A stretch of DNA of 64,000 nt. Source: Candidatus Heimdallarchaeota archaeon. GTDB lineage: Archaea; Asgardarchaeota; Heimdallarchaeia; Heimdallarchaeales; Heimdallarchaeaceae. Location: the NCBI GenBank assembly GCA_016840095.1, contig JAEOSZ010000031.1, positions 64,001 to 128,000 on the forward strand. Direction: 5' to 3'. The notes beneath the pieces are model-generated. The model was not told the origin of the DNA and searched no databases. It was given only the letters and a program-made list of their open reading frames with translations. Shown piece after piece: positions 43,995 to 46,357 of this stretch; positions within the stretch are counted from its first letter, which is position 1, and each line of letters opens with the position of its first letter. The position numbers and the translations under genes are program-made.

Positions 43995-44687
43995 TTGAAT
44001 ATGCTTGAACCATTAGTTATGAAAAAGGTGACAATATTAGGAACTACTGGTTCAGGAAAAACTACATTCTTGGAAGCTCTGTTTGGGAATATAGAGAAGA
44101 ATGATGTTGCTCGTAGAGTATTCAAAGAAGTTCAGAGTAACTTAGATTTCACACCTCTAAAATACAACAATTTTACTTCAAGTACTACAACAATTTCTCT
44201 TAATGTAGTTAACTCAGTTATAGTTCTAACAAGATTCAACAAGGTATTAATCAAAAAGTTTGAGGATAGAGAAACTATTGATTTTGAATCCATTGATTCA
44301 GCTTTTCAGGTAGTTTTATCTGATCCAGCTGGGCAAGAAAGGTTTAATTTCATGCAAGAAATTGCCTTAAAAGGCTCTGATTTAGTTATCATTATGGCTG
44401 ATGGTACAAATATTTCTTCTATGGAGAAAATTCTCCATTATTTGGAAATGGTTCAAATGGAAGAATACAGAAAAAATAGACAAATTCCTGTACTAGTTTT
44501 CATCAACAAATCTGATCTTAGAGATAGAGGTATATATTTAGGAAAGGATGTTGCAGAGAGAATAGTTTTTTCTTCTATTATTGATCGTGAGATTGTTTTT
44601 TACGAAACTTCTAATCTTGATGCAAGGTGTTATGAACTTCCCTTAACTATTATCTTCAATTATTTAGCAATGCAGGCTTATTCCTAA
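43995..44687 (+). CDS. Ras-superfamily small GTPase (MglA/CvnD-like)
   Basis: G1 GTTGSGKTT, G2 STTTIS, G3 DPAGQERF, G4 NKSD, G5 ETS. Start may be ATG 44001 or 44019. Confidence 0.93.
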   Translation: MNMLEPLVMKKVTILGTTGSGKTTFLEALFGNIEKNDVARRVFKEVQSNLDFTPLKYNNFTSSTTTISLNVVNSVIVLTRFNKVLIKKFEDRETIDFESIDSAFQVVLSDPAGQERFNFMQEIALKGSDLVIIMADGTNISSMEKILHYLEMVQMEEYRKNRQIPVLVFINKSDLRDRGIYLGKDVAERIVFSSIIDREIVFYETSNLDARCYELPLTIIFNYLAMQAYS

Positions 44688-44728
44688 AATCCTTTCAAAC
44701 TAACTAAATCTTTATCTATTTTGGTTGA

Positions 44729-45112
44729 TTGGTTCAGTTGAAGGCAATGAAACAGATTAAACAGCTTACTTTCAATATTACTCAAAGTAGGCGTATAAAG
44801 AACTATTCTCAAAAAAATAATATTCCTGAAAAAGAACTGTTAGCTCGTTATCAATCTGCTATGCATGTGATTTTTCTTGCCTGGAAAAAGAATCAAGAGC
44901 TTAATCCAGATTTACCATTCAGAACATTTTTTCTAGATATTATGAAATATGCAGAATTTGTCTTCAGATTAAAAGAGAGAAAAGTAGATCTAGTAAAAAT
45001 TACTGAACATGTAGAGATTTTAGAAGATGCTATTGAGGAATATAAACAAGACTACAACAAACTGATTGGAATTGAGAAAGTAGTTAAAGAATATGAAGAG
45101 AGGAATGCTTGA
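44729..45112 (+). CDS. hypothetical protein (possible N-terminal RHH-like segment plus coiled coil)
   Basis: LTFNITQSRRIKNYSQKNNIPEKELL; heptad C-terminus; overlaps the next ORF. Start may be ATG 44747. Confidence 0.65.
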   Translation: MVQLKAMKQIKQLTFNITQSRRIKNYSQKNNIPEKELLARYQSAMHVIFLAWKKNQELNPDLPFRTFFLDIMKYAEFVFRLKERKVDLVKITEHVEILEDAIEEYKQDYNKLIGIEKVVKEYEERNA

Positions 45113-45561
45113 TGAAAATAGGTACAACACAATTCACTGTCAAATTCAAAGATAAGATTCCTTGTGACGATGAAGAGCTTCTTGCTAGTGATTTAGCATA
45201 TTATCTTTATTACCTAGAACTAATTCCAGAAGAACTTAGTGATTGGAATATGGACGATCTTAATTCTAAAAGAAAAGATGATGAAGAAGTCTTTACTAAA
45301 CTAAGTCGCGAATATTCAAACTTATTCAAAACCTATGCTCTGATTAGACTCAAAGCAAATGAATTATATGAAGGAAATAGGGTTATTGCATTAACTATGG
45401 GATTGCTAAGACAAAAATTACTACAGTTAAAAGAATCAGGTGTGGAACTCCCTCTTGACTATGTTGAATCTATAGAACATATCGAACATTTCATCTACAG
45501 ATATCTTACCAAGAAACAAGACAAGAGACTAGTAGAACAAGTAGTTTTTGATGAAAGGTAA
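45109..45561 (+). CDS. hypothetical helical protein
   Basis: 150 aa; start overlaps the upstream stop codon. Confidence 0.7.
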   Translation: MMKIGTTQFTVKFKDKIPCDDEELLASDLAYYLYYLELIPEELSDWNMDDLNSKRKDDEEVFTKLSREYSNLFKTYALIRLKANELYEGNRVIALTMGLLRQKLLQLKESGVELPLDYVESIEHIEHFIYRYLTKKQDKRLVEQVVFDER

Positions 45562-45584
45562 AAAAATATTTTGTCGGTATTACA

Positions 45585-45622
45585 GACCTTTTAGATAAGG
45601 TCGCGACCTTCTTAACAAGGTT
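45585..45622. repeat. 38-bp double-dyad site; candidate recombination site or operator
   Basis: GACCTT-TTAGAT-AAGGTC-GC-GACCTT-CTTAAC-AAGGTT; central perfect 14-bp palindrome AAGGTCGCGACCTT; ends 3 nt before the recombinase ATG. Confidence 0.85.
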
Positions 45623-45625
45623 AAA

Positions 45626-46357
45626 ATGATTCGTTGTATTATTTATGTAAGAACTTCAACAGCTGATCAAGAATCAGGTCTGGAAACACAAATAGATGAT
45701 GTCACTGCGAAAATCTATCAAGCTGGAGACAGGGAGATAGTCAGAATCATTAGAGATGAAGATGTTCCAGGAGACAGCGATCCAGAATATAGAGATGGAT
45801 TCAAAGAAATTTTGCAAATGGTTGAAGATGATGAATTTGATGAGCTATGGAGTCAGTCAAGAGATAGACTATCAAGGGATGTTGATATTCTAGGTTATAT
45901 CAGAGTCATGCTCAAAAAGAAAGACATTTCCATCATTTGTTTGGATGATGAAGATAACAAAGCTTTTGCTAGAATAAAAGATCTATTTGGTGAAATGGAA
46001 CTTGAGAAATATAGGGAAAAGCGTTACAAAGGAATGTTGAGAAGGATAGAGAGTAAGAAGGTTATGTCACGCCCTCCTTTTGGTTATACAGTTAACGAAG
46101 AAGGAAGCTTAATTATTGATGAAAGTAAAATGGGTCTTATTAGACGTCTTTTTGGTGAGTTTGACAATCCATTTGCATCACTCAAAACACTGAGTATCAA
46201 ATACAATATTCCTGTATCAACATTGAGGAATATTAGGTCAAACCCAATATACCGAACCGGTGAAGTACGTTGGGCAGGGAAAATTGCTTACTATGTTGAC
46301 CCTATTGTTCCTGAAGATAAAGATCAAATGTTAAAAACTGAATGGGAAGCAAACTAA
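45626..46357 (+). CDS. serine recombinase (catalytic domain plus short recombinase DNA-binding domain)
   Basis: YVRTS11T..Q, LETQ, R.GF, DRLSRD, PPFGY, STLRNIRSNPIY.G; no zinc-ribbon. Confidence 0.92.
   Translation: MIRCIIYVRTSTADQESGLETQIDDVTAKIYQAGDREIVRIIRDEDVPGDSDPEYRDGFKEILQMVEDDEFDELWSQSRDRLSRDVDILGYIRVMLKKKDISIICLDDEDNKAFARIKDLFGEMELEKYREKRYKGMLRRIESKKVMSRPPFGYTVNEEGSLIIDESKMGLIRRLFGEFDNPFASLKTLSIKYNIPVSTLRNIRSNPIYRTGEVRWAGKIAYYVDPIVPEDKDQMLKTEWEAN

Follow-up and report, generated by a model that had tools for sequence, protein, structure and literature searches.

A short serine recombinase with a conserved dyad over its own promoter, an orphan gene pair and a small GTPase in a neighbourhood of Heimdallarchaeaceae

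A short serine recombinase is encoded within a 64-kb stretch of DNA (the window, to which all coordinates refer) from a metagenome-assembled genome (MAG; G000) of the Asgard family Heimdallarchaeaceae. Its gene is preceded, in the same orientation, by genes for a small GTPase and for two proteins of orphan families, ORF2 and ORF3. An earlier reading of this DNA, made from its letters without database searches (the sequence-only reading), had described these four co-oriented open reading frames (ORFs) as a module. The ORFs are real and lie where that reading placed them. The gap between ORF3 and the recombinase gene is not empty: a conserved double dyad was found there, at 45586-45621. For comparison, 60 related genomes were used, 30 from the same family (f1) and 30 from five sister families, making 61 with G000; the genera of f1 are labelled g1 to g5 and the genus of the window genome is g1. 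The features of the locus are the following.

43995..44687, + strand: Ras-superfamily small GTPase, 230 amino acids (aa); Pfam Ras and TIGR00231
44698..44723, + strand: promoter-like box AACTAACTAAATCTTTATCTATTTTG upstream of ORF2; conserved in g1 and partly in g2
44729..45112, + strand: ORF2, orphan helical protein; 22 orthologues aligned, AlphaFold2 (AF2) model
45109..45561, + strand: ORF3, orphan helical protein, predicted partner of ORF2; complex model and orthologue alignment
45577..45621, no strand: conserved cis element, double dyad; conservation in 17 species of two genera
45626..46357, + strand: short serine recombinase, 243 aa; PF00239, phrog_95 and catalytic residues

The recombinase, ORF2 and ORF3 were found in 28, 24 and 27 of the 30 f1 genomes, respectively, and each in 0 of the 30 genomes from sister families. 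All four genes are contiguous in g1 and in g5, in the latter despite a dead recombinase. In the complete genomes of g4 a ferritin gene stands between the GTPase gene and ORF2. In g2 ORF2, ORF3 and the recombinase gene follow a gene for a giant FG-GAP protein (in one species a NosD-type gene separates ORF3 from the recombinase gene) and the GTPase gene is elsewhere, between genes for an arginase and a beta-eliminating lyase, while in g3 the four genes are scattered over three contigs. The recombinase gene follows ORF2-ORF3 in four of the five genera; the GTPase gene comes directly before ORF2 in two, is separated from it by the ferritin gene in a third and lies elsewhere in two.

Downstream of the recombinase gene all five genera have the same hydrolase, EamA/NIPA-type and amidohydrolase genes (the hydrolase gene was undetected in g2), and in four of the five an eIF-2B-family gene stands between the recombinase gene and this set. 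The recombinase gene is linked more tightly to these unrelated downstream genes than to the GTPase gene. They are at least as syntenic as the four genes themselves, and at this depth synteny alone is no proof of a functional module. The comparison of synteny and empty sites that the sequence-only reading had proposed gave a fixed place in five genera and no empty site, because in genomes lacking the block the flanking genes are missing or truncated at contig ends. Contig breaks near the locus in several MAGs were considered as signs of rearrangement and rejected as their positions differ.

The recombinase consists of a resolvase catalytic domain, helix E and a predicted C-terminal helix-turn-helix (HTH) domain, with no coiled coil. 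It belongs to the serine recombinase superfamily, since PF00239 matches aa 5-142 at 69.3 bits (cut-off 23.3, E = 5e-19), and residues R9, S11, D80, R81 and R84 are conserved in the orthologues of g1, g2 and g4 and in the paralogues. The best profile match was to phrog_95 (large serine integrase; 1e-29), in which aa 1-218 correspond to profile positions 87-321 of 651, and the NCBIfam profiles XisF and CcrA match over aa 1-176. The motifs RPPFGY and NPIYxTGE follow helix E, and the predicted C-terminal HTH resembles the start of the "recombinase" domain of large serine recombinases. HTH_7 was undetected in the window protein and reached 26.1 bits (cut-off 23.8) in the homologous C-terminus of a 43% identical paralogue (P0042). 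The C-terminal domain on its own had no match in the PDB or Pfam, and PADLOC returned nothing for the recombinase, ORF2 or ORF3.

Despite these matches the protein is not a full large serine recombinase. PF07508 gave no match at E values up to 10 (the 43% paralogue gave 0.0057, which is below the cut-off), there is neither a zinc ribbon nor a coiled-coil insert, and the length is 243 aa rather than about 450 to 700. The zinc ribbon can be excluded because the C-terminal part has no cysteine: of two cysteines in total none comes after residue 105, and the protein ends about 25 aa past the HTH region. The sequence-only reading had given 243 aa, catalytic Ser11, a truncated recombinase domain and no zinc ribbon, and profiles and residues agree with it on each. 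An IS607-type serine transposase was also considered and rejected, as the catalytic domain starts at residue 5, no TnpB gene is nearby and the NCBIfam IS607 profile reached 30.8 bits (cut-off 110).

Known serine recombinases provide two partial likenesses. With the resolvases of Tn3 and gamma-delta the window protein shares an N-terminal catalytic domain with Ser, Arg and Asp-Arg and, by prediction, a C-terminal HTH, and dyad-symmetric candidate sites lie directly upstream of its gene and overlap the promoter. In contrast to those resolvases (about 185 aa), it is longer, has no transposon or neighbouring transposase, belongs to an archaeal host, has orthologues that are dead in two genera and carries a C-terminal domain like the start of the large-serine-recombinase domain. 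Furthermore, res has three subsites, in place of which the window gene has two short dyads, with only one in three of the genera. The large serine recombinases (phage integrases, XisF, CcrA and SpoIVCA) supply its best profile matches; unlike them it lacks the zinc ribbon, the coiled coil, a pair of att sites and any prophage or excisable element.

The recombinase is the most conserved of the four gene products, with 82 to 97% identity within the genus, above the GTPase, ORF3 and ORF2, and 77 to 97% across three genera. In g3 and g5, however, S11, D80, R81 and R84 are lost, and in g5 also R9, while the ORFs remain intact. These dead orthologues retain 68 to 70% identity in the C-terminal domain against 39 to 44% in the N-terminal one. 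That they stay intact and keep this domain indicates that a non-catalytic function is conserved, most simply DNA binding. The recombinase is read here as a domesticated host gene whose product would bind and regulate its own promoter. Domestication had already been suggested by the sequence-only reading, and it is supported by the fixed position in five genera, the strong conservation and the dead but intact orthologues. A serine recombinase is normally taken to indicate mobile DNA, but the one described here is a stable host gene found across the lineage, and its promoter site together with conserved dead orthologues would make it a clear case of exaptation in Asgard archaea. No paper linking Heimdallarchaeum with serine recombinases was found in the literature.

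Homologues with 43 to 54% identity, as well as a 46% identical paralogue in the window genome itself, stand alone among housekeeping genes. This paralogue (249 aa, G000:C31:9183-9932) lies between a subtilase and a hydrolase gene and has an intact active site in all five genera. It has a conserved upstream element of its own, composed of GTATTAC, the TATA-like TTATAAGAAG and ACCTT(C/T)TT just before the ATG, with half-sites similar to those of the window gene.

The cis element upstream of the window recombinase comprises GTATTAC (45577-45583), dyad 1 (ACCTT-N6-AAGGT, 45586-45601) and dyad 2 (ACCTT-N6-AAGGT, 45606-45621) and ends 4 nt before the ATG. Dyad 1 overlies a TATA-like sequence, TTTTAGATAA, about 30 nt before the ATG. 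Over the 17 species, ATTAC and three of the four 5-nt dyad arms are invariant, the left arm of dyad 1 varying in three, whereas the stretch from the ORF3 stop codon to the element is variable. All five genera retain dyad 2, even those in which the recombinase is dead. Changes in the dyad arms are uncompensated, which favours a site bound by protein over an RNA hairpin, and the dyad spacings vary by 1 to 2 bp between species. In each of the four genomes checked (G000, G001, G009 and G025) the double dyad is present as a single copy. By analogy with the Tn3-type resolvases, which repress themselves by binding res, it is read as a candidate operator over the recombinase's own promoter, and the recombinase would be the protein that binds it.

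Eight other, single matches to ACCTT-N6-AAGGT occur in the window genome, seven of them within coding regions. The eighth is intergenic, lies upstream of a DUF3160 gene and lacks conservation in the orthologous loci. This DUF3160 gene (G000:C84:2080-3573) is split into pieces of 381 and 108 aa, its orthologues being about 730 aa long, and its promoter has a different conserved palindrome, TTGTGT-N8-ACACAA, in all orthologues.

A second promoter-like box, AACTAACTAAATCTTTATCTATTTTG, precedes ORF2. It is near-invariant in g1, partly kept in g2 and ends 24 nt before the likely start codon of ORF2; it may represent an archaeal TATA box with its B recognition element (BRE). The separate conserved promoter-like boxes of ORF2 and the recombinase gene suggest three transcription units. 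A bacterial promoter and terminator scan of the locus is unsuited to an archaeal host.

ORF2 and ORF3 form a firm pair. From the alignment of the 22 ORF2 orthologues, every one of which comes from f1, the likely start of ORF2 is the ATG at 44747 (M7, invariant), giving a protein of 121 aa. That of ORF3, also from orthologue alignment, is the ATG at 45112, which overlaps the ORF2 stop codon. The two genes are always adjacent and their coding regions overlap. ORF2 is predicted to begin with a basic strand-helix-helix and also to have a helix of about 60 aa. AF2 models both proteins as all-helical, each chain having a single very long helix, at a per-residue confidence (pLDDT) of 86 for ORF2 and 70 for ORF3. 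The coupled pair of helical ORFs in the sequence-only reading is thus upheld by the overlap, the constant adjacency and the models. Prediction of complexes, which it had also proposed, gave an ORF2-ORF3 interface with an interface score (ipSAE) of 0.73, the best control scoring 0.00; this score is reached by 58 of 80 solved complexes and by 2 of 110 mismatched pairs. Three runs share at least 91% of contacts, with a partner pLDDT of at least 78. In the model, ORF2 residues 10-15 lie antiparallel to ORF3 residues 9-17, and the two long helices touch at heptad intervals along their length.

Sequence and fold searches place the pair in no named family. Neither ORF2 nor ORF3 matched Pfam or NCBIfam, PDB profile searches gave nothing significant, and Foldseek comparison of the models with the PDB gave nothing at E ≤ 0.001. 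A wider fold search found generic coiled coils only (Z about 6.5), the ESM Atlas unnamed clusters only, and PHROGs, for ORF2, a single weak match of unknown function. Among 1.84 billion proteins the tiny ORF3 family accounts for just 18 representative clusters. Each ORF3 relative examined is preceded by a gene of about 117 to 123 aa in the position of ORF2, and none of those examined has a recombinase or GTPase gene nearby.

The models suggest that ORF2 and ORF3 form a ribbon-helix-helix (RHH)-like heterodimer with a coiled-coil tail. As in Arc, MetJ and CopG, both N-termini are predicted to be strand-helix-helix, and the strands, in which polar and hydrophobic residues alternate, would pair antiparallel across the interface. 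Unlike those proteins, the dimer would be hetero- rather than homomeric, with a long coiled-coil tail on each chain, and neither sequence nor fold searches matched any RHH family. The most likely role of the pair is that of a DNA-binding or architectural protein. As an orphan family with a confident predicted heterodimer, it is a new, testable candidate for such a role.

A second coupled pair, ORF2'/ORF3' (116 and 144 aa), is present in the window genome at G000:C56:31056-31841 on the minus strand. ORF3' is 31% identical to ORF3, and ORF2', the one protein in the ORF2 position compared by profile, is weakly ORF2-like (hhalign probability 54%). The gene upstream of this pair (L056:5854-6360) encodes a protein of 168 aa that falls close to flavin reductases in the ESM Atlas (score 0.91), which is no more than a lead. 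An unrelated marine contig (L063) has the same three genes, for the 168-aa protein and ORF2'/ORF3'.

The GTPase is a member of the Ras superfamily, having motifs G1 to G5 and family profiles above their cut-offs (Pfam Ras, 41.8 bits against 21.6; TIGR00231, 48.2 bits against 42.5). Its motifs are readable in the translation as GTTGSGKT (G1), DPAGQE (G3), NKSD (G4) and ETS (G5). The G1-G2 and G2-G3 spacings are each about 23 aa longer than in Ras, which reflects insertions around switch I, and alignment to the Ras profile begins only at residue 81. No roadblock/MglB gene adjoins the GTPase gene, and the protein does not qualify as MglA-type. The sequence-only reading was right about the full set of G-motifs, the two insertions flanking G2 and the lack of an adjoining roadblock/MglB gene. 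It had also seen an MglA/CvnD-like TTT and GQERFxFM pattern; the 60 best solved relatives listed for the protein are instead all eukaryotic small GTPases, among them Arl8, Ypt1/Rab and KRas. With the Asgard and eukaryote-like GTPases (Arf/Arl, Rab) the window GTPase shares G1 to G5 and a DxxGQE switch II. It differs from them in the two insertions of about 23 aa, in having no adjoining longin or roadblock partner and in belonging to a lineage-specific clade of Heimdallarchaeia.

Of the 61 genomes, 51 have orthologues or paralogues of the GTPase, among them genomes of sister families without the other three genes. Outside f1 the members of its clade have 35 to 50% identity and no conserved neighbour gene. 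In G021 two tandem GTPase genes, 82% and 63% identical to that of the window, lie at a contig end (G021:C32:46948-48421), and ORF2 comes next, on the other contig. The GTPase tree suggests an old tandem duplication followed by differential loss at the locus.

Taken together, the locus may best be explained as three separate units in a vertically inherited neighbourhood specific to Heimdallarchaeaceae, with a domesticated, self-regulating recombinase, and as neither a four-gene machine nor a mobile element; this explanation is held with about as much doubt as confidence. The GTPase would be an ordinary Asgard small GTPase of the Ras superfamily that stands upstream by chance, and its link to the other genes is probably one of neighbourhood only. 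ORF2 and ORF3 would be translationally coupled and form a heterodimer in which the N-terminal strands pair antiparallel and the long helices coil. The predicted C-terminal HTH of the recombinase would bind the ACCTT/AAGGT dyads over the TATA-like box and the start of the gene, and the bound protein would repress its own gene in the manner of Tn3-type resolvases at res. In g1, g2 and g4, which have an intact active site, the recombinase probably still recombines DNA, possibly at a dimer-specific site, while in g3 and g5 it would survive as a catalytically dead DNA-binding protein. The new findings are modest. They comprise a fixed family of short serine recombinases in Heimdallarchaeaceae, dead orthologues included, whose gene has a conserved dyad over its promoter, and an orphan ORF2-ORF3 pair predicted to form a heterodimer.

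Several points weigh against this explanation. The strict conservation of the active site in g1, g2 and g4 means that catalysis matters there. A single-copy site beside the recombinase gene also resembles a res or dif crossover site, which leaves a role as operator only unproven, and the conservation of dyad 1 could merely reflect the TATA box. Finally, ORF2-ORF3 and the recombinase are adjacent in four of the five genera and have the same phyletic range, so a functional link between them is possible.

The first alternative is chromosome resolution, which the sequence-only reading had raised and for which an unexpected hint emerged. Heimdallarchaeaceae may have lost XerA, in which case one or both of the short serine recombinases would resolve chromosome dimers and the dyad would be a dif- or res-like crossover site as well as an operator. 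XerA is a near-universal tyrosine recombinase. PF00589 tyrosine recombinases are strong in 28 of the 30 sister-family genomes, and XerA_Arch reaches 233 to 288 bits in the sister families f4 and f5 (cut-off 220). In Heimdallarchaeaceae, PF00589 matches occur only sporadically: the complete genome G027 and G025 (95% complete) lack them, and the XerA_Arch match in the complete genome G030 has only 63 bits. This near-absence raises the question of how their circular chromosomes resolve dimers. Complete genomes of the family contain exactly two PF00239 genes, the window recombinase and the 46% paralogue; in G027 the two sites lie at about 84 kb and 348 kb. The restriction of the short recombinase to the family (28 of 30 genomes against 0 of 30 outside) fits a role in place of Xer, as does the conserved dyad that each of the two paralogues has upstream. 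So does the position of the window double dyad, single-copy in the four genomes checked, beside a vertically inherited gene with fixed synteny. XerS/difSL and XerH/difH also keep the site beside the gene, and in this respect the locus is like these and the archaeal XerA/dif modules, from which it differs in its serine rather than tyrosine chemistry and in a copy that is dead in two genera.

The loss of S11, D80, R81 and R84 in g3 and g5 tells against such a role, because it leaves at most the 46% paralogue as a universal resolvase. The apparent loss of XerA and the gain of the recombinase fall on one branch and therefore count as a single coincidence, not a correlation. The outlier genome G061 has a 54% homologue together with Xer-like genes, and G001 has a XerA-like gene exactly at the cut-off. 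No GC-skew switch was seen at the site, the skew being noisy along the 225-kb contig, and the 1- to 2-bp variation in dyad spacing is also unfavourable. According to a 2022 review, no chromosome segregation by serine resolvases is known (PMC8987985). A replacement of Xer is therefore considered unlikely. A fuller version, in which two short serine recombinases, both having a single-copy dyad at their own promoters, took the place of XerA, and the window gene is either a resolvase or a regulatory, partly inactivated sister, possibly assisted by ORF2-ORF3, must be regarded as a long shot. If true, chromosome-dimer resolution by a serine recombinase would have its first example here, in close archaeal relatives of eukaryotes. 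No paper discussing the loss of XerA in Asgard archaea was found in the literature.

A true four-gene module, in which the GTPase, ORF2-ORF3 and the recombinase act together, for example in GTP-gated recombination or DNA binding, would explain why ORF2 is immediately preceded by a GTPase gene of this clade in g1 and g5, with a single gene between the two in g4. It would also fit the retention of two tandem copies at the locus in G021 and of all four genes in g5 despite the dead recombinase, and the common phyletic range of ORF2, ORF3 and the recombinase. However, the GTPase family extends to sister families without the other three genes or any conserved neighbour, and in g2 and g3 the GTPase gene lies apart. 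Synteny is at least as good for the unrelated downstream genes as for the four, the promoter-like boxes of ORF2 and the recombinase gene are separate, and the paralogous ORF2'/ORF3' pair and the paralogous recombinase gene lie elsewhere without a GTPase gene. Joint action of all four proteins is thus improbable. Of the module in the sequence-only reading there remain ORF2-ORF3 as a firm pair and the recombinase gene after them in four of five genera, while the GTPase is separable and the promoter-like boxes are each gene's own. Its further proposal of GTPase-linked control finds nothing beyond neighbourhood, the GTPase family being far wider (51 of 61 genomes) and separated from the block in g2, g3 and g4.

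A site-specific switch that inverts or excises a nearby segment, its inversion form also having been raised in the sequence-only reading, is very improbable. The intact active site in g1, g2 and g4 and the dyad-symmetric site adjoining the recombinase gene would suit a switch. A partner site was nevertheless lacking: no second double dyad occurs in G000, G001, G009 or G025, seven of the eight other single dyads in the window genome lie within coding regions and the intergenic one is not conserved, and gene order and orientation around the locus are constant in all genera.

The sequence-only reading had alternatively proposed that the locus is what remains of a small mobile element, now decaying, by which the GTPase gene was carried. 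This is barely credible, since against the best profile match of the recombinase to a phage-type large serine integrase family and the unremarkable composition, which were counted in its favour, stand the lack of terminal repeats and of tRNA, transposase or phage genes, the same location in five genera, the high conservation of the recombinase and the lack of an empty site, absences being contig ends.

The neighbours of the locus are housekeeping genes (nadA, nadC, genes for a NAD-kinase-like protein with a winged HTH, an IF-2B-family protein and a hydrolase, and an EamA-type transporter gene). No transposase, TnpB or phage gene is present within about 6 kb of the locus, and a search for flanking repeats around it found nothing convincing or significant, both in agreement with the sequence-only reading; no tRNA gene lies between 30 and 60 kb of the window.

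Some neighbouring genes differ between the genera or are unusual in themselves. In g2 and g4 a protein of 1400 to 1630 aa with FG-GAP/beta-propeller repeats is encoded directly upstream of the block in the same orientation (L047:28-4923, L048:65-4387 and L050:101-4300), and its gene is absent from the corresponding place in g1. In G001, which belongs to the same genus as the window genome, the recombinase gene and the IF-2B-family gene are separated by an inserted gene for a secreted or membrane protein of 275 aa (L055:5360-6187). In the window itself, the gene at 42856-43902, divergent from nadA-nadC, encodes a NAD-kinase-like protein fused to a C-terminal winged HTH (NAD_kinase_C, 5.5e-20; HTH_24, 3.4e-5).

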